Assembly (NCBI RefSeq): GCF_037042905.1
Contig: NC_087250.1
Location: 13,084,001 to 13,148,000, forward strand
DNA from: Lytechinus pictus
Taxonomy: Eukaryota
Length of the DNA: 64,000 nt
Reading direction: 5' to 3'
Shown: positions 15,521-60,583 of the stretch, piece by piece
Position numbering within the stretch: the stretch's first letter is position 1
How the letters are laid out: each line of letters begins with the position of its first letter
Position numbers and translations under genes: made by a program
The notes under the pieces: model-generated
The model's database searches: none
What the model saw: the letters and a program-made list of their open reading frames with translations, nothing else
Told to the model about the DNA's origin: nothing

Positions 15521-16091
15521 GATAATAAAATGAGGAGGAGGACGAAGGAGAATAAGATTTTGAAGAAGGAGGATGAGGAGGAAGGGAAAATACATGTATG
15601 AATGGATACAGAATGAACCCGGAGGTAGAGGGACATAACTGTGGTAAATTATAAATGAATAATTACTTACCCAACCAGAGAAAATATCCGATCCCTTTCC
15701 AATGTCATGCAGTGTTTTAAGCAATAGCGAAGCCTGATACGTGATGATTCACACATTCAATATAACTTCGTCAAAAAAGAAAGTTAACTCAGACTTCGAC
15801 ACTAGCTGCAATCGGAAATAATCTTCAGATGGAAGTAATAAAACGTCCGTTAAAACTTAATCAAAACACTTTGAGGAGTTAAACAAACTACGTGTGCCGT
15901 TCGAAGATGTGGCACACGAGCTCCCCTATTAAAACTCATAGCGATGTTCACTAGACAAAATTATATACCTCTTTTGGCAAACATGTGTATGAGTTTGGTT
16001 TCGGAGAGGCGCGCATGCGGAGACCGCACGGGGGCGTTACCCTAAAACTAATAACCACTCGCTGAGCTCAATAGTCTATGCTGAAGACCCG

Positions 16092-18096
16092 GGGCGGTAT
16101 TCTGAAAACGTTCTTATCTTAATTTTGTTCTTATCTACGTCACGATCTCAAATTGGTATTCTGAAAACGTTCTTATCTTTTTCTTATCTTTTGTTCTTAT
16201 CTTTTTCTTATCCTGCTAAACATCCTTTGCTGAGCGCGTAAATGTATTACTCGCGCATATAATACAAAAGCGCGCTAAAAAGATAAGAACAAAATGAAGA
16301 TAAGTGGTATTCTGAAAACGTTCTTATCTTTTCTCTTTCTTATCTTTCACGATATTTATGATAATATTTAAGATAGCTAGAGGGTTATCACATCTCACGA
16401 TGTCCGCGTTCTTTCTTGCTTAAAATCGATGGCCACTATTAGTAACAAGTACCCACAAGTATTCCTCCCACCCTTTCTTTCATTCACCCTTTATTTTCCC
16501 GTCTCTTTTTTCTATCCCTTTTTTCTTTCTTTCTTTCTTTATTTATTTTCTCTTTTTCTTCCTTTCTATCTGTCTGTCTTTCTTCCTTTCTATGTGTCTG
16601 TCTTTCTTTCTTTCTTTCTTTAAGTTTATCCCTCATTTATATCTTTTGTTTTATTCTTTTGAATCTTTTAATTTCTTTACTTTTCTTTTGCTTTGTTTCA
16701 TTTATTCTTCATCTTTCTTCCATTTTTATTTTCCCTTTTCATTTTATCCCTTTCTTTCTTTTCTTGAATAAGTCTTTATTTCTGCTTTTATTCTTTCCCC
16801 TTTCTCTCTTCCTTTCCTCTTCTTTTCTTTTCATTTTTCTTTCTTCCGTCACATTTTTGTAATCTTTTTACTTCTTCCTTATGTTTTTCTTTCATTCTTT
16901 CGTCTTTATATGTGCTTTTCCTTTTTTCCCCTTTTTCTTTCTTTCTTCCCTTAATATTATTTTTTTCCCCTTATTTTTTTTTTCTTTTTTTTCTTTTTAT
17001 TTTTGGGTTCTTTTTTTTTCTTTTTTCGTTCATTCGTTTGTTCTTTCTTTCATTTTTTTTATATTTCTGCTTCCTGACACTCTTGTGTCTTATTTACTTT
17101 CTTTCTTGTGTTTTATTCTTTATTTCGCTCATTCTTTTTTCGTTCATTCTTTATTTACTCTTTCTTTACTTTCCTCTCTGTGTCTTTCTTCTATCAATTT
17201 AAAAAAACCTTTTTCTTTATTCTTTCCATTAATGTTTTTTCGTTTTCTTTTTTTATTCATTCTTCACTTTTCCTGACTTTTTATTTTCCCTTTTCGTTCC
17301 TTTTCTTTCTTTGAATTTTCCTTTCTTTCTTTTTGTCTTTCTGTAATCTTTATTTTTGCTTTAATTTTCCTTTCACTTTTTTCTCTCTCATCTTTATTTC
17401 TTTGTTTCATTTTCCTTTTCCTCTCTTTTTATTCTTTTTTATTTTGTCCTTTACTTTTTTCCTTTAAGTTTCTTTCTTTTCTTTCTTCATTTTTTCTTCC
17501 TCACTGTATCATTGATAATCGTTCTATTTTTTTTCCTTATTTTATTATTTTTTTCTTTTTTTCTTTTTAAGTTCTTTTTGCTTGCTTACTTTCGTTTACT
17601 CTTTATTTCTTTCATTATTTTTTGCTTTGTTCCTTTCATCTTTTTTTTATTCCTGCTTCATTCTGACACATTTCTGTCTACTTACTTTCTTTCTTCATAT
17701 TTTATTCTTTATTCGTACCTGCTTTATTTACTTTTTATCTTTACTTTCTTTCTTTCTTTATTTTGTGCACGTGTCTCGAAATAATAATCAGTCATTGCGT
17801 ATAAAATGCCTATTTCGCGCAGTGCGCAAGAAACAGTGCACGCGCAGCGCCCATGATATTCTCTTCACATAAGGAACGCTTCTATTGGTTAAACTAACAA
17901 TATAAAGCGCATTTTGATTGGTAATATCTTAAAAATGGGCGTGTTGAAGATAAGAAGGAGGCAGTCCTTACAGAGATAAGAACGCGTTAAGAAGATTTTC
18001 AGAATACCGATTTGCAATGATTTTAGCGTCTTCTTATCTCATTGAGATAAGAACAAAGATAAGAACAAAGATAAGAACGTTTTCAGAATACCACCC
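16092..18096. mobile_element. 2-kb non-autonomous TIR element (PIF/Harbinger-like) with a 1.3-kb polypyrimidine core
   Basis: TIRs GGGCGGTATTCTGAAAACGTTCTTATCTT / AAGATAAGAACGTTTTCAGAATACCACCC; 3-bp TSD CCG; repeated subterminal TTCTTATCT motifs; T/C-rich interior about 16460-17765. Confidence 0.8.
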
Positions 18097-19734
18097 CCGG
18101 CCTGCAAGAATGAGAAAAATCACCTCTCGGCTGTAAATTGCTATTTTGATGCATGGGACAGAGTATCGCGTTGAGTGGAAGTGATTAAACGTATACAGTT
18201 TGTCATGTACATTGGTTTATATAAAGTTAACCAACCCTTACCAATATTGTTTATTTTTTTAAAGAGTAACCTTGATGTTACCTTACATGTTACAATTAAG
18301 TTACCCCCACCCCAAAACAAAATAATAATAATAGTGTACCTAATATACAATTCGATTGCAAAATTCAATTCAATTCAATCTTGGTTTATTTCGTATAAAA
18401 TCATGAAAATACAAGAGACATGTTTTACAGGCAAAAGGCTGAAATAAGCATGCTTACAATAAAATGTTCACAATGCATACAATGGTAACAACAAATACAA
18501 TTTTAACGAGTACATGTCAGAATTTGTGAAATATAAATAATATATAGTGTTTAAAGAGCAGGTGTAAATAAACATTAATTACATATAGTACAAAATGGGA
18601 TGTAAAAATCTGTAAATGAATACAATTTCAAAATGGGATAAATATTAGACAATTATAGAAATCAAAGTAGTATAGTAGTATTGAATAGTAAGTATTTGAA
18701 TTGAAATAAATTGTAATAAGAAATATTACACAAGCCACATTTTTAAATTACACTTTATTACACATGATATTATAATTAGATGAGGGCTGAATCCATAGAA
18801 TGTGGCTTTTGTGACGTCAGATGGGAGCAGCTTCCTTTGTTTATGTCATACCACAATGTAAATTTCAACAAATTTGAATACTGGTCATTGAGTGATAAGT
18901 ATATAATACAAACCTGTATCAAACTCTTATTTTTAATAAGAGGCTGCACCATACAAGCTCTGCTTATTATTAGTAGTAGTAGTATTAGTATCATTATTAA
19001 CAATGAAAATAATAGTAATGATAATAATGATGATAATGATCAATAATAATAATTATAATAATAATTTGATTGATTAAGTACTTTTTGCCGTGCTACCATA
19101 TAGGGGCGCTGAAGCATAAAAGGAATGTCTTCTAATCGAGTACCCATTCACCTTACCTGGGTTGAGAGAAGCACAATTTTGAGCAGTGTCCTCCATTCTC
19201 AACATGTTTATGTGATAGTCTTGAAAACATAGACATGTATTAATTGTTTTATTGCTTATATCAACTTGAAGATGCCAACAGGGGCCGCGGAGCTGTTATG
19301 AAACAGTGTTATACAAAAGTGGGGGGGGGGGGGTGGCTGAAGCCCACCTGGTAGAGAATCTGCCGTATTTAAAATGCCAAGAGAGGCAGAATGTCGTGTT
19401 AGCTGCCCTTATAATCATTGGGCGTGGCACTAAGAAGACGGCTACGTACCTTTATAATTGTAAATCAGACTATATTTTGTCTCTTGGAACATAAAACTTC
19501 GATACAACTAGAAGTTTTATTATTTTTATTATTTTATTTATTTATTTATTCATATGTTTACTTATTTCGTTTATCTGTTTATTTATTTAATTTTTTTGGG
19601 GGGGTGCATTCGAGATTTAACGACTAATTATTTAATGCCATACCGTATTCGCAAAACAGAGTAGTTTTAGTTTGTTGAACTTGTTCTCAAACTCGTAGTA
19701 TCTAGTTCAGACACGATTATTTAGACTGTTTATA

Positions 19735-19830
19735 ATGATAATAAAAATAATGATAATAATATCGGTATATTTACCCAGGGTAGCCACTTCAGTTCCGAAA
19801 ACTGTTCTTCCAGCGGGCCCTGCTATTATT
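19735..19830 (-). mobile_element. 3' tail fragment of the SINE family seen at 20245
   Basis: Reverse complement matches GCAGGGCCCGC.GGAAGAACAGTTTTCG...CCTGGGTAAATATACCG + (TTA)n. Confidence 0.75.
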
Positions 19831-20244
19831 GACTGCTGATTTTTACAAATTAGAAAATATAACTTGTATCCGTAATAAATTAAACCGTTTGTATTTTTTA
19901 GCCACTTCAAACGTCGAAATACCCGGTCTGCAGTGATCAAGTATATAATGTACCTCTCTGCAATGTATGTCATATTCATATATGCCCCATGACTCGGGTG
20001 TTTTTTTAATTGATAATAATTAACAGTCATTGTATAGTGCGCATATCATATTATGATTGCAATGTCTCTATGCACTTAGGACTTGGATATGAACGATGAA
20101 TTATGATATATATTTTTATGCAATAGATTTTAGTAGCGACTTTATTTATTTATTTTTTATGGTTTGTAATGGATATAATGGCATTGTAAAGGCACCTGTG
20201 CTTTTTTCTCATATCTTTTCAGATTCTTATGAATTTTAATCTGT

Positions 20245-33481: not shown

Positions 33482-34519
33482 GATATTATCATTATTTTCA
33501 TTTTTACCTTATTTCTCATTTTCATCAACAGCATTATAACAATGACCAACATCGAACTCGCTCTCAGCTAAAAAAAAGTATAAACGAAAACAAAACTTGC
33601 TTTGTCATTTTATTTTCCCAGGGCTGAGTAGAATCCGTCTTATCACAAATGTAAGAGATACCCATCACAAAGTTATCAATACCACACAAAAAGCTTCGCC
33701 ACTCATTAAATCAAAACATATAAAGTGAAAGTGATACAGACAGTTCCTTGTACCAGTGCGGTATGGCATCACCACCTCTTAAGGAAGATGGATATTAATA
33801 TCTCGATAAAGTTAGTCTCTGTCGTATTTTTCGTTTGAGGAGTCACGCATGGATACCATCGCCGCCATCTCGAAGCCCGCCCGTGCCTCGTTAATTTGAA
33901 CACACACGATCCGTGGTTATGGTAACGCGGGACGCACTCCGATGATTCTTTGTGTTTCCCTGGAAACCAACAACGCTCCTGCCGCATAGAGAAATATAAA
34001 TCGAGAGAGAAGACACTTGTTGATGGTGATGATGATGTTGCGATGCCGATATGAATTTCGGCATTGTATGAATTCCATTAGTTAATTGGTTGAAGATGCA
34101 CAGGGTTACTTGTAGTTTAGACAGTATCGCAATAAATTGCTAATAATCAAGCGCTGAAATATTAATTAGCGTCCACTACTACATTTATACATATCACATT
34201 TTTTCATCCTTGGTACTTGCAAGGACAGTTGGTGGTTGTGCTTAAGAAGCTTTGACAGGTCGAAATTGCACATAATGAGAAGAGTGTTTGAAATAATTTC
34301 CAATTCAGAAATAAAAGTAAAATTATCAGAATCCAACAAACATTGACAAATGGACAACCACACAATTCTCTGAATTGAGGATATTCAACGAATGATCATT
34401 AAAAAGCGTGTACGTGGTTGCCGAGTACAATAGTTCTTCTGGAAGAACGGGCCCCCTTCTCGCACAATTATAATTCACGTGCCCTCGCAGGACCACGTGA
34501 CATTTTGTTAGGTCAATAT

Positions 34520-34576
<57 letters not shown>

Positions 34577-34952
34577 CTATATAAATGTGTGAAGTTATAC
34601 ATGTACAACAACTTTGGCAACTCTTTTATTTAAATATTTTGTGAAAGAAATGGATGAAGAGAACAATGGTAGGCATAGCTTAAATCAAGGTTCCCCAGAG
34701 CTATCTACCCTTTGGATCCGATTAACCGTCAGATAGACAGATTTTCGACACTATACAATTATAATTTCCTTTGTCGGGTGAAGATGGGTTTTGAACAATG
34801 AACAAGCAATAGCTTTGATCCAGCTGAGGCATGGCGGCTTGTCATTGTTCAAAATCCACCTTCACCCGACAAAGGAAATTGTAATTGGTATAGTGTTGAA
34901 AATCTGTCTATCTGACGGTTAATCGGATCGGGGTCGCCCTAGCCACTCACCC

Positions 34953-35024
34953 GTCTCTGTGGTCTAGTGGTTAAGGCACCGGCGTTCAAAGCTGGGGGCA
35001 CGGGTTCGATTCCCGGCAGAGACA
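34953..35024 (+). tRNA. tRNA-like gene with UCA anticodon (opal-suppressor-like; tRNA-Glu-like body), copy 1
   Basis: Acceptor GTCTCTG/CAGAGAC 7 of 7; D stem GTCT/AGGC; anticodon stem CCGGC/GCTGG, loop GTTCAAA (TCA at 34986-34988); T arm ACGGG-TTCGATT-CCCGG (one mismatch); TTTTT immediately downstream. Confidence 0.6.
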
Positions 35025-35359
35025 TTTTTCGGCATCACCAATTTTTCCAAAGGGTTGATAGCTCTGGGGAACCTTGATTTAAGCTATGCCTACCATTGTT
35101 CTCTTCATCAATTTCTTTCACAAAATATTTAAATAAAAGAGTTGCCAAAGCTGTTGTACATGTATAACTTCACACATTTGTATACTTTCTCCCATACGTG
35201 TACTGTATCAAAGCAATAGCTTTGATCCAGCTGAGGCATGGCGGCTTGTCATTGTTCAAAACCCACCTTCACCCGACCAAGGAAATTATAATTGGTATAG
35301 TGTCGAAAATCTGTCTATCTGACGGTTAATCGGATCGGGGTCGCCCGAGCCACTAACCC

Positions 35360-35432
35360 GTCTCTGTGGTCTAGTGGTTAAGGCACCGGCGTTCAAAGCT
35401 GGGGGCCCGGGTTCGATTCCCGGCAGGAGACA
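35360..35432 (+). tRNA. tRNA-like gene with UCA anticodon, copy 2
   Basis: Same fold; perfect T stem CCGGG/CCCGG; one extra G in the 3' acceptor strand; TCA at 35393-35395; TTTTTT terminator. Confidence 0.55.
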
Positions 35433-35714
35433 TTTTTTGGCATCACCAATTTTTCCAAAGGGTAGATAGCTCTGGGGAACCTTGATTTAAGCTATGCCTA
35501 CCATTGTTCTCTTCATCCATTTCTTTCACAAAATATATATATATGTGTGTGTGTGTGATGGTGTGTGTGAGAGGGTGTGTGTGTGGATGCACATACTGTG
35601 GATGTTGCATGGATTAAAAAAAAAATAGTGATAAAGATACACCAGCTGTTGAAATATATCAGTTCTTGTTCTTCTTCTATACTGTTTAGTGATATCAGGG
35701 AGTTTATTCATAAG

Positions 35715-35945
35715 GTGTTGGGGCTCAGTGGATAAGTATACTCTCTTCGAAACAAAGGTACCGGGTTCAAAACCCTACCGCGGCACTCGTGTCCTTTGGC
35801 AAGAGGCGATGCCACTCTCCATCCATGTGAAGTGAATGGTTAAGCCTACCCGATATTTTTTAAATGCTCGAGCGCCAGATAAGAGTAGCGTTGCTAAAGC
35901 TTGGGTTATAGTAAGCGGTGTTTTAAATAATAGCGCTATTAAAAT
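35715..35945 (+). mobile_element. Diverged tRNA-derived SINE
   Basis: GGCTCAGTGG...GGGTTCAAAACCC...GTCCTTTGGCAAG...GCCACTCTCCATCCA, similar to the 32122 SINE. Confidence 0.6.
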
Positions 35946-38054: not shown

Positions 38055-39185
38055 TATTTTTTAGACTGAAATGTGCAATGCTATGCAATAAACACAGATA
38101 ATTTCAATACAAACAATTACAAGGGGCTGTGTTCCTGTGTACACAAAAAGATAACTTTTTAAATTCGGTTTTGAGACAGATAATTTCTGTTCCTTTTGTA
38201 AAAAAGAAGTTGAGTCTTACCAACATTTATTTTTTAATTGTCCTGAAGTTAAGCGATTATGGGAAGAGATTAGTAAAATATTTCAACTGAATGAACTTGG
38301 CAGTGACGTTTGGAAAACAATTTTCATGGGGATACCTGGAAATACTACAAGAGTAGCTTTAATAAACTGTATTATATTCTTAATCAAGTATATCATTTTT
38401 AGTTCAAGAAAACAGGGAATATTGCCAACCGTACAGAAAGTGACACATTTGGTTAAAGAGTATAGAGATACGGAATATCAAATAGCGTTTAAAAAGGGGA
38501 AGCTGGGGGTGCACTTAAGGAAATGGGAATAAAGCAATGCATACCTTTCTTAATACTATGGATGTATTGGTTGCTTCATTTTGTTTCTGTTTTGTTTATT
38601 TGTTCAAATACAGATAGTTGTACCAGAGCAGGATGCATTGTGTGTGGGTGTACGTGTGTAGATGGATGTGTGAGTTTTGTGACGGGGAAGAGGGGGGGGG
38701 GGAGCTGTGAGTGGTGGTGAGTTGAAGTGAGCTTGTGTGAGTGTCTGGGGAGAGAGATGAGGGGGGAGGGGGTATGGGGGTAAGGTGAGTGTGTAGGGAC
38801 GTTTTAGGATAACCTTCCTCTAATTAACCTTTAAAATAATCTTTTATCCTTTTTTATTTCTTGTACAATTAATATGTGCAAAAGAAATTATTTCTATTCT
38901 ATTCAGGGAAAAAGTCAGTTTTTACAAAGTACGTTTTTTTTTGTGTCGATTGATACGGGTTTTTCCCCTCTGCTTTCACATTGTTATAGAAGAGAAATTT
39001 GGCAGTTTAATTTCATTTGTAATCATTTAAAAAATATTCGTAATCTCATTGATATTGATATATTTATTTGTTTGATTGTTTATTGATTGTATACATACAA
39101 AGAATCTTTATTTATATGAATTGTGATTGTTAACTTATTGATTTGAAAGAGGAAGAAAATAAAATATTATTAAAAAAAAAAAAAA
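38055..39185 (+). mobile_element. 5'-truncated L1/Tx1-clade LINE (ORF2 C-terminal zf-RVT region, 3' UTR, poly(A))
   Basis: Reads ...FQYK...CSFCKKEVESYQHLFFNCPEVKRLWEEI...HLRKWE* (stop at 38532); AATAAA and poly(A) at 39158-39185; 7-bp TSD GTTCCTG (38048-38054, 39186-39192). Confidence 0.85.
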
Positions 39186-49896: not shown

Positions 49897-50682
49897 ATTT
49901 CATCATTATTACAAGCACTATTGTAGCACCAATATTCTCGTAAAATTACACCGGCCATTGTCATCTTTATCACTCTTATATTCCCTGCTATTGTAATTTT
50001 CATCATAATTTCCCTTTCCTTCTATCGCATTTGTCTATTTCAGATTGGTTTTTCATCGCCTCTATTCTGATGCTGAATTCCGCTGTTCGGTCCCACATGT
50101 TGAATTTGCCGTCATAAAGCACACAGACCCTAACGTTACCGACCCGAATAAAGATCCACCTGCTATCCCTTGGCATCTACAATAAGGCATTCTCCATGTG
50201 CGACCATTCGCGATCGATTGGCGCACTAACGGCAGGACTCTGACTCAACGTTTATCAATCATGCACTACTTGTCGTTTTCACCGCGCTGGTAAGTCGTGC
50301 GACACCCCGCTTTATTTAGAGAAGCAACAGCTGACTGGAGAACGTTATTGATTTCATTTCGTGTTAAAAATTTGAAGTCACATTTATTGGATAAATAATA
50401 ACGGTCTATTCAGCGCATTATCAGCAAAGATTACTTAGTGACTGCTTTACCAAACGTGCTGTCTGCAGGCCATTCTCGTAAAGGGATTCGTTTATCGGGG
50501 AACCTGATGCGACTTTTTCGCCAATAGATATTTCGAAACTATATATCACCATGTAGAAAACTAAAACCATTATGGTGTTTCTTAACCTGTTGTAAAGCTT
50601 TTCTGAATGTAACCGTAAATGTTATTAGTTACTACCGACGTGCCTTAATATATAAAGATTTAAAATACGATACCAAATTGCC

Positions 50683-52369
50683 ATGGATCAATTGCTAAAG
50701 TTATCCAGAGGACGTTTGAAGTTCTTTGGTTTACTCATTGTAGCAGCGGTGGCTATGCCTGCTTCAGGTGTTGACGTTGGGAAAGGAGCTGTTGAAGTAT
50801 CGCTACCCGCTGTTACCGATGAATTGCCAGAGCCCGAGGGCGTCCTAGATGGAGATTGCATGAACATCTCTTTGAAGAACAGCGATTGGAGCTGGAATGG
50901 CGTCGATGGACAACAGGCAGAAGGAGAAACGGCACTGCTGCTCAGGAGACTGATCAAAAGACTAAACAATGCGACTCAACGAATCCACGATGACAATCCC
51001 AATCTGAATTCGACACAGTTCATAAATGTTGTAGCCAGTCGCTCTTCCCTGTTGTTGTTGAAGATCAAATCGTTCGCCCGTGTCTTTGGCCAGATAAACT
51101 CCTTCTATGGATACACTTGCCGGAACGGAAAGGATCTCCTGCGACATGCCCTCAACAGAAACATAACCGCAGATGAATCTGAAGATTTCGATGACGAGCT
51201 AGCTGAAGAGATAGATGCTGCTATCCATGAGGTTATGGGTGATGATAATGGGGATGCAGAAGAAGGCGGTGAGGCGGAGGAAGAGGAAAGTGGTGGGGAA
51301 GAAACGGAGCCAGGTCGTGGTCCAGGTCCGAAACCTAACAGCAAATCACTTGGAATGCAGAACAAGACACTTGCCATACGAAAAAGAAACAAAATTGCAG
51401 TCAGGATGTTCATCAAGAAAGCTCTCGTTGCTTTGTTCCTGTCACAACATCGGTTCAAAGGGTCTAGGATGTCTCTGCAAGAAGTTATCCAGCGACTTGG
51501 AGAAGATGGGAGACTCGGAAGCATAGACCAGAGCAAGCCGAGACACGTAGGTGGAAGGAATGAAACCGCGGATAGCACGGAGGTAGCTGGGGATGATGAC
51601 GGCTTGACAGGCATAATGGGTGAAGACTCAGACGAGATTATGGATATCTTCGAATCCGTAGAATGGTTTGATGACGAGGGCGACAACTCCGACGTTGAAG
51701 ATGAGGAAGAGGTCCGCAGGAAATTCACACTTGAAGGATACCTGCTCAAGCTTATGTCTGTGTATGTCAACAAGAGTGCTTCGTGCGCGAGACGGGTCAC
51801 CAGGTTCATCAGGCAGAGAGCCAAGCACCTACCGAATAAGACAGACGATGAAGAGGAATTCACTGATCTCTGGAAAGATTACATGAAATTGGTTCGTCAG
51901 ATGAATGTTTCGCGGCACCAGCAGGCCAGCGATGGTTCACTGCGTAACGGAGGGGAGAACTCTTCGAGCGAAGTTGAAGTGCAAACTGGGAATCCCCTGC
52001 AGGAGGATGGACCTCTTGTCTCCAGGATTCGTAACATCACGCAACGACTCGTTGAAGGTAAATGGAGCGGAAAGGGGGGCATCGAGGGTCGCTTCTATGT
52101 GGTTGTATTGAAAATGGCTCAAGTGATCAATAACTGGGGAAAGGCAGGCTTCTTGACCAATGGAACATACTTCGACGCTAATTGTTCGCCTGGTCGATCG
52201 TCGAGTGAGGGTGCCACGACAACTTGTCGCATATGTCCCACAGATGCCTCCATTGGGAACCTTCGAATGCTTCTCTCTGAGCTAGATGACACCATCGAAG
52301 AAGTCTATGATGATATCAGGGACAGAGTGGATAGACTGACTAAAGGAACACCAAAAGAAAAACTGACAG
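50683..52369 (+). CDS. Large uncharacterised secreted glycoprotein, coding exon 1 (signal peptide plus repeat domain 1)
   Basis: GCCATGG Kozak; signal MDQLLKLSRGRLKFFGLLIVAAVAMPASG; GC-rich ORF until donor ACAG|GTAGGA, after which composition becomes intronic; phase 1. Confidence 0.85.
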
Positions 52370-52926
52370 GTAGGACTAAATCTCATCATTTATCATTCCA
52401 ATGCATCAGTACATTTGCCAATTATCTCTCTCTCAAACTCATTAGGCTATCTACTTTTTGTAAAAAAAACCAAATACATGTAAATATACGCATAACCCTA
52501 CGGGAAGGTAAAACTAAAATCTATAACAACAAAATTATTTTCAACTTTTTTGGTAACTTCATGTTATAAAACATGACCAATATGCGTATTATTGTTTTAA
52601 AATATTGCCTAATAGATGTTTTACTCTAAGGATACAACATATTGTTCATGTACATATATGTAATTAGCTTAATTGGCGCAAATGCTGTGGATCATCATCA
52701 TCATTGTCGACTTTCATATTCATTCCATATTATATGTGGCCCGTTACCCCCAATGCCAACGATAAGTCGCCAAGGAGGTTTATCTGTACATAAACTAGTC
52801 CAAATAGTAACTTGGTGTTTATGAACTAAAATTTCGAAATCATTCTCGTCTCAAAGAGCAATTTTGAAACTGAATAAAATACGATCAACGGGAGTTTCTT
52901 TGACACCTCATTTTCCAGAGTTCCTG

Positions 52927-57782: not shown

Positions 57783-58361
57783 CATTTATTTTCTTGTTGT
57801 TTTGCTTTCAAACAAGCTTACTTGTTTAAGGGTTTCCTCCTTCTTAAATCAAATATTTTGACAGAGTATGCAATGCCTTGTTCATCACGAAGCCCTCTGT
57901 GGCATTTCCTTAAATCGTTAAGTTGATAAGAGTGGTGATGATCTTTCGAATGTCACTCTATCATTTTCTTGTTTTTTTGTACTACACATTCATTTCGATC
58001 ATTTCAATAACATTTTTTCTGACCCAGCATTTTCGTAAAATTGGTATTTTTCATTAAATCTTCGACGCACGTTTTACTATCTATTTGCGTTTTCATAAAC
58101 ACTTCAAATTTGCATTACTTTTACCTACGCTGCTACGCATTATTCGACTATTCTAACTTAAACAATTCTCACTTTACTTTTTATCTGGAAATTAGCACGC
58201 GTACCTTTTCCTTCGTTAACACAACACTTGTTTACGCTCGCATCTAATCAATCTTTTTCAGTTTCATTGCATAGAATATTAACATAAAAATGTGTTTTTA
58301 GTCCCGAATTGTCACATTGTTCAGCGGTCAGATACATTGGAATATTCCTAATTTTTAACAG

Positions 58362-60583
58362 GGATGTTCACAAAACCACGGCGACTTCTCAATACGCACG
58401 GCGCCGACTGCTTCGCCCTAACCTTCGCAACAAAAGACTGGCGTCTGTTTCAGTATGAGAGCCTCAGTGGAAAAACGAAGGATGGTGGAGACGAAGGTAA
58501 TAGTGATGAGGGCGAAACTGATTTGGAAGAGGATGATGACGAGGAAAACATTGGTGATGTCGCAGACGAAAACGATCAGGGAGAGGCAAATGCGACGGCA
58601 AATGTAGAAAGCGAAGTGGACCAGAAAGGGACAGATAGAAAAGATGGTCACCAGGCCCGTAGGTCACCTTTTCCACGTGCAAGGAATATTCTTAACAGCC
58701 AAAGTAGACAGATTCGGATGATCACTAGGGATATTACTATTGGAAGGATTGTGCGGCTTATTGTGAGGCAATCTGCAGTTCGCATGCTAAAGGTTCTGAC
58801 CTTTGAAAGAGTTTTTAAAATGATTCACAGATCAAACAGTTTTATTTGTACGAATGCAGAGCCTCTCATGAGGGAAGCACTAGGGCCTAACGCAACATAT
58901 CTAGAATTGTCAAACATGTCGGCAGTTCTAAAGGCTATCAATCGAACGATAGCCGAAGTTCGTAAGGAAAGTACCCCAATTTCGAGCTCCAGTTATAGCA
59001 AATCTGGATCCGTGTCATGGTTAACCGACACTGGTCGGTATCAAGACCGTGATCGGGAAGGGTCAGAACCATCAGGTTCACTAGAAGATCCCAGGCCAGA
59101 GTCAAGAGAAGGGTCTCCTTCATCGGGTTCACGAGAACGCATCGGACCAGAGTCAAGAGAAGGGTCACGCCAAAGTTATGAGAGTGGATCGAGCGATGAC
59201 GGCTACAAAGCAAAGAATCCAATGAAGACACTAGAGGTGGAGGAAAGACAAAGTCTTTTGCAACGATTCAGGCAAGCAGCAATAATTGGATTATTCTCTG
59301 CGCCTCGGAGAATAAATAACCAAAGACTGTCTCTTTCCGAGTATGTAGCGATGTTGGCTTCTTTTTGTCAACATCAGAGACGTGGACCAAACTCAGTGTT
59401 CCGTGACTTAGACAAATGGTTACAAGAATATAGGGAGAATGTGAATGCACGTAACTATACCATTAACAAACACAACAAATCACTTACATTCTTAAAGCCA
59501 GGAGTACGTCCTCGAATTATCACATCAAGGCGAGAAAGGTATCGTCATGGCCAAAGAATGGAGATTATTACTTCATCCTCTTTCAAGTTTTGTTTGCCTG
59601 ACGATATTCATGGCTACTGCGGTAACAGGGAGGAACGCTACGGTAAGGTGATTGATAGATTTATAGGAATGTCTAGCAGTGCCAACACATCAGTTGTAAA
59701 GGAAGTAGACAGAGATAAACACGAGAAGGCTAAGGCAGATGAGACGAAGATGGAACATTTTACCATTGAAGAATTTCTTTTAGAGCTGATGATATCCATG
59801 TCCACGAAGACTTCTTCCTGTGCGAGTAGAATTAATCGTGCCTTGCGATTACATGGAAAGCCTGTGTTTGGTGTTCCCAGAATGAAAAAATACAATGGTA
59901 CAAGAGCTAATCCGGAACCTCGTAGTGCAAAGGGCATTGCTGTAACGCGGACGCCCGGGAAGAAATCGGACACACCTGGATCTGAACATTTTGTCTACAA
60001 ACATAACAAGAGTTCGAAGATGTATAAGGAGTACTTGGAGAGCATGAAATCTTGCCGAGGATCCGACTTTATCGAACGTCGGCTGGAAGGCCACACATGG
60101 GGTGAAACCTACCAAATAAGCTTGTTCTACTTCAAGGTCTTAATGAAAATTTCAGAGATGATAGACATATGGGGACGTTCCATGCGGGAAGGAGGAGAAA
60201 CCTTATACAATACATCATGCCAACAAAACGAAGACGGCGACGTGTTAACAACATGTAAGGTATGTGTTAGAGAGTCCGCAGTCGGTACTTTCGAAGATCT
60301 TGTTGGCACTATCGACGACATCCTTAGATCAACCAAGGAGACTTTAGCAACGGGTGTCAACGACTGGAAACAGCTCGGGGTATCTAAAAATAATGGAACC
60401 TTTTGGCAAAATGGTGATAAAGAAAGAAAGGGTCAAAAGGGTGACGATGACGAAAGGAAAGGAGCTGAAGGGAAAGGGACAAGCGAAGAAACTGATGGAA
60501 TGCCAGGCAGAAGACCTGATGGCAACCCCGGAAGAAACCCAGGAGGAAGATCAGATCACAGAACAGGTAAATACTATTCATAA
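58362..60583 (+). CDS. Large uncharacterised secreted glycoprotein, coding exon 2 (repeat domain 2); ends at stop 60583 or splices at donor 60566
   Basis: Acceptor TTTTAACAG|GG is phase 1 and joins exon 1 in frame (G+GG = Gly, then MFTKP...); colinear homology to exon 1; candidate phase-1 donor ACAG|GTAAAT at 60566/60567. Confidence 0.85.

Follow-up and report, generated by a model that had tools for sequence, protein, structure and literature searches.

The tDNA repeats of Xenopus and zebrafish are tandem Pol III genes comparable to the unit described here, and the 5S gene in the LTR of Cassandra elements is independently terminated. Sequences in repeats that resemble tRNAs are known to give rise to false 'suppressor tRNA' calls. 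Helenus elements (TRIMp3) of marine invertebrates are an example: according to Kojima 2024 (PMC10886601), they inflate tRNA predictions, including those of suppressor types, show frequent mismatches between anticodon and body, and are the source of every tRNA-Sup-CTA gene predicted in some rust fungi. The tRNA-derived SINEs (SINE2) resemble the present locus in their A and B boxes and high copy number, and their bivalve forms (PMC11481361) also resemble it in having simple-repeat ends and direct and inverted multimers. No description of the repeat family reported below was found in our literature search, whose bivalve focus was a guess; the oyster satellitome literature searched contained neither 'tRNA' nor a 407/408 monomer, and the oyster genome literature did not contain 'tRNA'.

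The locus lies in a window of 64 kb, by which we mean the whole stretch of DNA that was analyzed (64,000 nucleotides). It is built on a direct repeat with a period of 407/408 and 96-97% identity (Table 1). The 407-bp unit (34804-35210) consists of the loop, the proximal arm, a 118-nt tRNA cassette, the distal arm and the linker, and in the window it forms a near-perfect hairpin of 607 bp, the arms of which are 97% complementary. Folding of the foldback DNA gives -257.9 kcal/mol (z -35), with the cassette as a bulge. The left arm lacks exactly 118 nt, namely the leader, the tRNA and two T-runs, between two TC dinucleotides (alignment A1). The order within the cassette is a leader of ~23 nt, the tRNA, T5, 12 nt and a second T5 (35042-35046). 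The end of the distal arm at 35176-35184 is a family boundary, beyond which other copies continue in (TA)n or (CA)n. Outside the locus, blastn detected no further copies of the unit in the 64-kb window.

Table 1. Features of the tRNA-bearing repeat locus, in window coordinates
Feature	Positions	Strand	Evidence and remarks
(TA)n microsatellite	34516..34583	.	Tandem Repeats Finder, sequence; abuts outer end of left arm
Left arm, inverted copy of proximal and distal arms without the 118-nt tRNA cassette	34578..34801	-	Inverted repeats I1, I5, I6; blastn; alignment A1
Hairpin loop	34802..34841	+	Also first ~40 nt of the 407-bp tandem unit (unit start 34804)
Proximal right arm	34842..34927	+	Pairs with 34715-34801
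tRNA cassette, 118 nt plus shared TC at each edge	34928..35047	+	Alignment A1; not in left arm
tRNA copy 1	34953..35024	+	ARAGORN, Rfam, folding; anticodon TCA 34986-34988, G32 34984
T5 run, Pol III terminator-like site	35025..35029	+	Sequence; directly 3' of copy 1 discriminator A
Distal right arm	35048..35184	+	I1; 97% complementary to 34578-34716
Linker, head-to-tail junction of units 1 and 2	35185..35210	+	Repeats and alignment A1; joint recurs in contigs/reads
Second direct copy of 34804-35135, 96% identity	35211..35543	+	blastn, alignment; ended by microsatellite
tRNA copy 2	35360..35432	+	ARAGORN, Rfam, folding; anticodon TCA 35393-35395
(TA)n(TG)n microsatellite, right edge of locus	35544..35585	.	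Sequence, Tandem Repeats Finder

ARAGORN called tRNAs with the anticodon tca at 34953-35024 and 35360-35431, labelled 'SeC' because of the anticodon alone; the TCA anticodon corresponds to no sense isotype. The Rfam tRNA model RF00005 (gathering score 29) matched the two copies with 53.8 bits (E 8.7e-09) and 49.3 bits (E 1.6e-07), respectively. Both cmscan alignments are full-length (model positions 1-71 of 71), and they are the only gathering-level matches to this model in the 64-kb window. The aligned structure includes a 7-bp acceptor stem (GUCUCUG/CAGAGAC), a 4-bp D stem with one G-U pair (GUCU/AGGC), a 5-bp anticodon stem (CCGGC/GCUGG), a 7-nt anticodon loop (G-U-UCA-A-A) with U33 and a purine at 37, a 4-nt variable loop, and a T arm with a 5-bp stem and a loop of the UUCRA type (UUCGAUU). 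Each copy has a defect of its own. In copy 1, the T stem begins with a private A (35000) that forms a non-pair in the cmscan alignment, and copy 2 has one surplus G within the 3' acceptor strand. The minimum-energy structure of copy 1 is the cloverleaf (-28.9 kcal/mol, z -2.17); for copy 2, folding did not cleanly reproduce it (z -0.70).

The tRNA contains TGGTCTAGTGG and GGTTCGATTCC, which we take to be the A and B boxes from their consensus rather than from tool scoring. Copy 2, like copy 1, is followed directly by a T-run, T6 at 35433-35438 behind its discriminator A. The elongator-type features thus comprise 7/4/5/5-bp stems, both boxes and a T-run terminator, with the exception of position 32, which is G in both copies and not a pyrimidine. 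With its leader, a canonical 72-nt cloverleaf and a T5-6 terminator, the cassette makes up a complete and self-contained tRNA gene of Pol III type. The earlier note had described two copies of a 72-nt TCA cloverleaf with these stems and loops, one different defect in each, T5/T6 immediately behind the discriminator, and intact A and B boxes in a stand-alone, repeat-borne gene of tRNA type with its own T-run terminator. ARAGORN, Rfam and the cmscan alignment agree with that description, the two calls being of 72/73 nt.

We placed contigs from DNA runs of three organisms and reads of one RNA run (X21) on 34804-35210. The family is represented by 8581 contigs among 31.7 million records in organism A, that of the window (X1), by 882 among 13.8 million in organism B (X10), and by 186 among 0.59 million in organism C (X12). 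The joint from 35210 to 34804 is exact in 21 X1 contigs, and 29 have it with near variants (rows 35196, 35209 and 35210 to 34804-34806). Head-to-tail joints are also present in 4 X10 contigs and in 345 X21 reads (272 + 73). Head-to-tail copies of constant period recur at many places in the genome, which is a satellite-like tandem arrangement. Many copies stop at 35176-35184. Loose ends past these positions enter (CA)n or (TA)n in 48+23 X1, 1+3+8 (12) X10 and 4 X12 records, and the sequence past (TA)n is diverse. The terminator is T5 or T6 in the family, a T insert behind 35024 being found in 58 X1 contigs and in 398/673 of the X21 read depth. The family is very abundant and exists in both tandem and foldback forms, the latter with (TA)n at their outer ends. 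The two window cloverleaves, each with private decay, are slightly damaged members of this abundant family, which is common to a lineage. A search with the tRNA core pattern, in which seven loop letters were left free, yielded no matches in metagenome, prokaryote-genome and viral contigs.

Of all parts of the repeat, the tRNA is the best preserved. The variant data comprise the best-supported 40 of 98 rows, so that rarer tRNA variants may exist. Within these 40 rows there are 39 distinct variant positions, 2 in the 72-nt tRNA and 37 in 335 flanking nucleotides (Fisher p 0.027, binomial p 0.022); the leader is variable at 6/25 positions versus 2/72 in the tRNA (p 0.003), the variant density of the tRNA is four- to eight-fold below that of the flanks, and the p-values are provisional because only 40 of 98 rows were counted. 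Among the same best 40 of 98 rows, across three organisms, no variant affects the anticodon or tRNA positions 1-47, and none affects G32. G32, against which the earlier note had cautioned, is the family letter and not a private error. At 35000, C is the family letter in nearly all contigs and reads and restores the pair, so the T stem of copy 1 is mended and the consensus cloverleaf is canonical, as had been proposed. The other tRNA variant, 35020 A>G, converts U4-A69 to U4-G69, and the pair is kept. Near-fixed differences of organism B in the best 40 of 98 rows (34900, 34904, 34909, 35159, 35168 and 35180) are all located in the flanks. The earlier note had also suggested checking the conservation of the anticodon and stems among copies; the expectation was borne out in part, with an invariant anticodon in the best 40 of 98 rows and a tRNA less variable than its flanks. 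A-to-I editing at 35020 (A>G in 306/676 RNA reads versus 8 X1 contigs) was rejected because those reads also carry the X1-rare transversions 34910 A>T and 34931 G>C, and they represent a subfamily.

With modest confidence, a little above even, we favor the explanation that a complete Pol III-type tRNA gene module is borne and amplified by a non-autonomous foldback/tandem repeat and is kept as a gene, rather than as a proven decoder. A foldback/MITE-like DNA repeat of the non-autonomous kind would have received a copy of a tRNA gene in one of its arms, either through insertion or possibly through retro-insertion of a read-through pre-tRNA ending at the second T-run. The founder copy would already have had UCA and G32, and the cassette would then have multiplied along with the repeat. 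The module is presumably transcribed by Pol III, and its body may be kept through selection or gene conversion acting on a processable module that binds Pol III/TFIIIC, decoding probably not being the reason. A decoding role appears to be absent, since G32, the private stem-breaking changes and the lack of a linked coding element with in-frame TGA speak against it. With respect to the last point, the earlier note had envisaged linked autonomous elements with in-frame TGA codons, and none is present near the locus or in the window: the 112 window ORFs gave a single Pfam match, a zf-RVT fragment at 38155-38529, which is the sole transposon-like one. No homologue was found for the 743-aa window ORF.

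The carrier repeat may be a foldback/MITE-like element, with arms that are 97% complementary, many copies ending at 35176-35184 and no ORF matches. No target-site duplications, empty sites or transposase partner were seen, and duplications are illegible inside (TA)n. The conservation of the module counts against the explanation that we favor, as a repeat moving as DNA has no obvious need of an intact acceptor stem, anticodon arm and terminator.

It is unlikely that the carrier is a retroelement that uses the tRNA part as a Pol III promoter or LTR module. This explanation takes two forms. The first is a tRNA-derived SINE, with a head from 34953, a body and a (TA)n tail at 35184, occurring in tandem and palindromic arrangements; such structures are on record for bivalve SINEs (PMC11481361). 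Speaking for a retroelement, coverage in organism B between the tRNA and about 35167 exceeds that of the upstream part and linker four- to sixfold, and copies finish at 35176-35184 in simple repeats. However, the T5-6 run right behind the tRNA would halt a SINE transcript, and the repeated unit includes the 150 nt 5' of the tRNA. An ordinary decayed SINE head, which the earlier note had set aside, does not fit either, as the whole cloverleaf and the T5-6 run are the family consensus. The other form is a Helenus/Cassandra-like TRIM with the tRNA inside its LTR, and tRNA-like sequences are reported in Helenus LTRs (PMC10886601). Here GAGGCA|TGGCGGC (34826-34838) is readable as an LTR end and primer-binding site (PBS), and AAAGGAAAT|TG (34871-34881) as a polypurine tract (PPT) and LTR start. 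These candidates are weak: the purine tract is poor, the putative internal domain is just 49 nt long, no target duplications were seen, the candidate PBS is unlike the few Helenus PBS sequences compared, and the observed ends of the family lie at 35176-35184 rather than where the LTRs would end. A stretch of 16 nt from the tRNA was not in the Helenus consensus file, where a match across line wraps is possible.

We regard as improbable the stronger alternative that a lineage of animals maintains thousands of intact UCA-tRNA Pol III genes by selection and concerted evolution, and that the product is made and used. A conserved gene with a fast-evolving spacer in tandem, a further point against the explanation favored above, is typical of functional Pol III gene families, e.g., 5S rDNA, which favors a real RNA function. 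The product might be a tRNA for regulated UGA read-through or recoding; non-decoding candidates are a module released by RNase P/Z, a TFIIIC/chromatin boundary element and a source of small RNAs. If this were true, the family would represent a new class of repeat-encoded functional tRNA-like genes and not of pseudogenes.

It is quite improbable that the cloverleaf is instead a tRNA-like processing signal, at which RNase P and RNase Z would cleave long transcripts of the arrays or foldbacks, as for mascRNA on MALAT1. Cleavage would set free spacer or hairpin RNAs that might be small-RNA precursors or circles, and the foldback would yield a double-stranded stem of ~225 bp. Recognition by RNase P/Z requires that the entire cloverleaf be conserved, acceptor stem included, as it is here, and RNA reads extend over the full unit and through the head-to-tail junction (272+73). 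The X21 reads also carry 34910 A>T (180/436) and 35175 C>T (310/525), each versus about 1% of X1 depth, and this difference in subfamily mix between RNA and DNA suggests that particular loci are transcribed. On the other hand, coverage in X21, an mRNA-type paired library unsuited to a 72-nt RNA, is flat, with equal strands and no tRNA-sized ends, and the tRNA borders have no pile-ups of read ends. Carry-over of DNA or an unstranded library would account for the equal strands and for the recurrence of the joints in DNA contigs. A T5-6 run belongs to a Pol III gene and not to a processing signal, the Rfam mascRNA-menRNA model scores 17.6 bits versus a gathering score of 42.5, and no ribozyme was found. 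A ribozyme or retrozyme was rejected separately: up to an E of 5, Rfam gave neither a hammerhead nor any other ribozyme.

Opal suppression by the repeat tRNA is disfavored, and we consider it highly improbable that some copies are transcribed by Pol III, processed, CCA-tailed, charged and insert an amino acid at UGA. Charging would presumably be weak, perhaps via TrpRS through C35, A36 and A73, if the identity rules apply. The fully canonical consensus cloverleaf with its boxes and terminator, the T stem mended by the family letter, the conservation of the tRNA relative to leader and arms, and the absence of anticodon variants among the best 40 of 98 rows in three organisms are all compatible with a working suppressor. 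A37-A38 behind an anticodon ending in A is typical of tRNAs for U-starting codons and suits such a reader. Against this, the family letter at 32 is G; a purine at this position is very rare in decoding tRNAs and is taken to speak against efficient decoding. The two window copies are both damaged, and no mature RNA is evident in the only RNA run, which is of mRNA type and unsuited to a 72-nt RNA. Low-level suppression is tolerable, but suppressor genes active by the thousand would be costly. The two long window ORFs (743 and 637 codons) both terminate in TAA and contain no TGA in frame, giving no hint that TGA is a sense codon; a check by ORF counts is uninformative, as counts go up whichever stop is removed. 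A tRNA-Sec, against which the earlier note had already decided, is ruled out by anatomy: such a tRNA is about 85-90 nt long and is defined by an extended variable arm, acceptor/T stems of 9/4 or 8/5 and a 6-bp D stem, whereas the present tRNA has 72 nt, a 4-nt variable loop, a 7/5 arrangement and a 4-bp D stem.

The family shows the possible scale of suppressor look-alikes, and we advise masking or flagging it in tRNA annotation. It also raises the questions of whether a selfish repeat may carry a live tRNA gene, whether its copies could act as Pol III/TFIIIC landmarks, and whether a natural UGA-reading tRNA could be expressed in an animal nucleus.

Among known systems, tRNA-Sec and natural or engineered opal suppressors share the UCA anticodon with A37-A38, while tRNA-Sec differs by its long variable arm and 9/4 (or 8/5) fold, as opposed to the 7/5 fold and 4-nt variable loop found here. 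5S rDNA and the Entamoeba tRNA gene arrays (PMC2652664) are similar in having a short conserved gene and a faster-evolving spacer arranged head-to-tail, with microsatellite-like sequence between or beside the units. These arrays encode normal decoding tRNAs or 5S RNA, unlike the present family with its stop-reading anticodon, G32, and foldback and dispersed forms. Cassandra TRIMs, which build long tandem arrays (PMC7215508), are likewise non-autonomous repeats carrying a stand-alone Pol III gene, but that gene is 5S and not tRNA, and the carrier is a plant LTR element with PBS and PPT. SINE heads normally have no intact acceptor stem and no terminator between head and body, both of which are family consensus here; the complete cloverleaf, the stop-reading anticodon and the dedicated terminator are common to three organisms, and a further departure is that the tRNA is less variable than the adjacent leader and arms. 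Helenus (Kojima 2024) is similar in carrying an A/B-box module resembling a small-RNA gene on a short non-autonomous repeat. Its LTRs (PMC10886601) are about 130-200 bp long with TG..CA ends, and it has a well-defined PBS and a PPT rich in purines, features that are weak or absent here, whereas the present unit is characterized by long inverted arms, (TA)n ends, a complete cloverleaf and a strong terminator of its own.

Two tRNA genes with anticodon TCA, and no further ones, were identified by ARAGORN in the whole 64-kb window. Both copies also match the Rfam tRNA model over their full length (53.8 bits, E 8.7e-09, and 49.3 bits, E 1.6e-07; gathering score 29), and no other Rfam RNA match in the window reaches gathering level. 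In the Rfam alignment both copies have a 7-bp acceptor stem, a 4-bp D stem, a 5-bp anticodon stem with the loop G-U-UCA-A-A, a 4-nt variable loop and a 5-bp T stem with the loop UUCGAUU. A at 35000 disrupts the first T-stem pair of copy 1, and the 3' acceptor strand of copy 2 has one additional G. The minimum-energy fold of copy 1 is the cloverleaf (z -2.17), while that of copy 2 is less clean (z -0.70). Thus, the two cloverleaves with this anticodon and these stems, the single and different defect of each copy, and the T5 or T6 run directly behind the discriminator, all claimed in the earlier note, are borne out. Its exclusion of tRNA-Sec holds as well, since the molecule is 72 nt long, has 7/5 acceptor/T stems and carries a short variable loop; the ARAGORN label 'SeC' on both copies is derived only from the anticodon.

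Features of the repeat locus and of the surrounding window
Feature	Position	Strand	Remark
Skewed block	16001-20000		GC 0.313, GC skew -0.143, AT skew -0.247
Open frames	16381-17869	+	three of three frames open
(TA)n	34516-34583		adjoins locus on left
Inverted copy, outer part	34578-34716		pairs with 35046-35184 at 97%
Inverted copy, inner part	34715-34801		pairs with 34842-34929
Direct repeat, first copy	34804-35135		period 407/408, 96-97% identity to second
tRNA copy 1	34953-35024	+	
T5 run	35025-35029	+	adjoins discriminator A of copy 1
Second T5 run	35042-35046		end of 118-nt cassette
Direct repeat, second copy	35211-35543		
tRNA copy 2	35360-35431	+	
T6 run	35433-35438	+	adjoins discriminator A of copy 2
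(TA)n(TG)n	35544-35585		adjoins locus on right
tRNA-head-like stretch	35690-35830	+	~150 nt downstream of repeat
zf-RVT, C-terminal part	38155-38529	+	E 5.7e-08
Uninterrupted ORF	50656-52569	+	637 codons
Uninterrupted ORF	58352-60583	+	743 codons

Each unit of the direct repeat carries one tRNA copy, and an inverted copy lies to the left; no part of the repeat recurs elsewhere in the window. As single-stranded DNA, 34578-35184 forms an almost perfect 607-nt hairpin (-257.9 kcal/mol, z -35) with the tRNA region as a bulge. When the reverse-complemented left arm is aligned with both units, it lacks exactly 118 nt, and the gap is edged by TC on each side (34928/30 to 35045/47). This cassette starts ~23 nt upstream of the tRNA and comprises that leader, the tRNA, a T5 run, 12 bases and the second T5 run. 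One possible origin is insertion of a copied read-through pre-tRNA transcript; another is that the left arm lost this stretch by deletion between the TC microhomologies.

The 407-bp unit (34804-35210) was compared with four public sequencing runs at a likeness of at least 85%. Matches comprised 8581 contigs from the 31.7 million records of X1 (DNA, organism A), 882 contigs from 13.8 million of X10 (organism B), 186 from 0.59 million of X12 (organism C), and 2068 raw RNA reads from 12.9 million of X21 (organism A). The X1 contigs fall into likeness classes of at least 99% (1508), 95-99% (3475), 90-95% (2950) and below 90% (648). Three contig collections (metagenome, prokaryote-genome and viral) contain no match to the tRNA core pattern. 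Among the 15 of 67 joints listed, head-to-tail joints from 35196-35210 to 34804-34806 occur in at least 29 X1 contigs (at least 21 exactly from 35210 to 34804), at least 4 X10 contigs and at least 272 + 73 X21 reads; therefore, the 407-bp period is characteristic of the family. Numerous copies stop at 35176-35184 instead, where (CA)n or (TA)n follows and the sequence behind it is diverse (at least 48+23 X1, 12 X10 and 4 X12 records among the 24 of 629 loose ends listed), and others among these ends break at 35135 into (TA)n, like unit 2 in the window. Such (TA)n or (CA/TG)n tracts were seen at the ends of family copies both in the window and in other contigs; either (TA)n microsatellites are the element's target, or they arise from its AT-rich ends. 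Summed depth, a poor measure, decreases from the distal arm through the tRNA and the proximal arm to the linker, and by the same measure organism B has four to six times the depth from the tRNA to ~35167 as over the rest.

Within the family the tRNA appears to vary less than its flanks. The best 40 of 98 variant rows represent 39 distinct positions, with contigs counting sequence forms rather than events; of these, 2/72 lie in the tRNA and 37/335 in all flanks pooled (Fisher p 0.027, binomial p 0.022), including 6/25 in the leader (p 0.003 against the tRNA), 16/124 in the loop and proximal arm and 13/137 in the distal arm. In the same best 40 of 98 rows, none of the four runs has a variant in the anticodon (34986-34988), at G32 (34984) or anywhere in tRNA positions 1-47. 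The family data thus bear out in part the check set by the earlier note: among these rows the anticodon is constant, and the tRNA has fewer variable positions than its flanks. Almost the entire family has the first tRNA variant, 35000 A>C (116 X1 contigs; 538/586 X21 reads), hence the A in the window is an error private to copy 1, and all stems pair in the family consensus. The second variant, 35020 A>G (index 68, partner index 4), leaves pairing intact by replacing U-A with U-G. Organism B differs from the window in a near-fixed manner at six flank positions (34900, 34904, 34909, 35159, 35168, 35180) and, among the best 40 of 98 rows, at none inside the tRNA. The T run behind the tRNA is T5 or T6 in the family. 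Anatomically, the module matches a stand-alone Pol III tRNA gene rather than a SINE head: the family consensus includes the whole acceptor stem, and the terminator comes immediately behind position 73.

The carrier most resembles a foldback/MITE-like, non-autonomous DNA repeat that can form tandem arrays too: its inverted arms are long, its outer ends are defined and lie beside (TA)n, it lacks coding capacity, and its copies occur both dispersed and in tandem. It is unlikely that the tRNA serves instead as a promoter or LTR module of a retroelement. For a TRIM of the Helenus type there are weak candidates (CA|TGG and a short purine run before TG, which would leave a 49-nt internal part), but the Helenus consensus sequences examined (PMC10886601) have clear TG..CA LTRs, PBS and PPT and appear to lack a 16-mer of this tRNA. 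A SINE would agree with the depth profile, the simple-repeat ends, and the tandem and palindromic SINE structures of bivalves (PMC11481361); it is contradicted by the terminator directly after the tRNA and by 150 nt of family sequence upstream.

Elsewhere in the window, the tRNA-head-like stretch contains GCTCAGTGG, similar to an A box, and GGTTCAAAACC, similar to a B box, with further sequence behind them; it resembles a tRNA-derived SINE and is called neither by ARAGORN nor by Rfam at E up to 5. The zf-RVT match, a predicted fragment of a non-LTR retrotransposon, is the only Pfam match among 112 ORFs. No autonomous element is linked to the repeat, and the window thus offers no linked coding element with the in-frame TGA codons that the earlier note suggested looking for. 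The 637- and 743-codon ORFs align over 543 columns at 21% identity (E 7e-12), as distant paralogues. They contain acidic stretches, Ser/Gly-rich stretches and conserved blocks that include Cys; neither matches Pfam, and no homologue of the 743-aa product was found. The skewed composition and open plus-strand frames at 16001-20000 suggest a strand-biased low-complexity or repeat block.

X21 is an mRNA-type paired library that can neither reveal nor rule out a mature 72-nt tRNA; its coverage over the unit is flat (~200-490 per strand class, both classes equal), with no excess of molecule starts or ends at any position. As 39% of the matched reads continue into unrelated sequence, some in perfect agreement (e.g. 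38 reads behind 34887), some of the signal stems from fragments that lie within other transcripts. X21 and X1 have strongly different variant mixes: 34910 A>T (180/436 reads), 34931 G>C (144/396) and 35175 C>T (310/525) each account for ~1% of X1 depth. Together with 35020 A>G, these variants mark a subfamily that is rare in X1, the organism A DNA run. Most of its reads span the head-to-tail junction, thus one or few arrays seem to be transcribed. In our reading, the RNA signal reflects specific loci or arrays being transcribed, not general DNA carry-over; a strain difference is a possible explanation of the contrast.

On balance, we lean slightly towards a tRNA gene module that travels with the repeat and is kept as a Pol III/TFIIIC-binding, processable gene, not as a decoder. 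The founder copy would already have had the UCA anticodon and G32, and the module would have been amplified as a passenger of the repeat. Selection on seeding copies or gene conversion may then have kept a putative Pol III/TFIIIC-binding, processable gene with no decoding role, while individual copies would decay, as seen in both window copies. A role as an RNase P/Z processing signal within long repeat transcripts appears improbable. A working opal suppressor is more doubtful still, considering the purine at position 32 (very rare in decoding tRNAs), a UCA class I body with no known matching synthetase except possible weak recognition by eukaryotic TrpRS (C35, A36, A73), and, as weak evidence, the two long ORFs, which lack in-frame TGA, both stop at TAA and give no apparent sign of TGA being read as sense.

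Among known systems, tRNA-derived SINEs carry small-RNA genes, Cassandra carries 5S, and true tRNA genes form tandem arrays in Entamoeba, Xenopus and zebrafish. In the literature searched, we found no description of a foldback/tandem repeat family with a complete, self-terminated UCA tRNA gene consensus; the interest of the family would grow greatly if mature or charged RNA were found. According to PMC10886601, tRNA-like LTR parts of Helenus TRIMs explain mass tRNA gene predictions, among them every tRNA-Sup-CTA call of some rust fungi; the 407-bp repeat differs in having only weak candidates for the LTRs, PBS and PPT that are clear in Helenus. With functional Pol III gene arrays it shares a conserved gene and a variable spacer within a tandem unit, and because this is their signature, the module may have a real RNA function.
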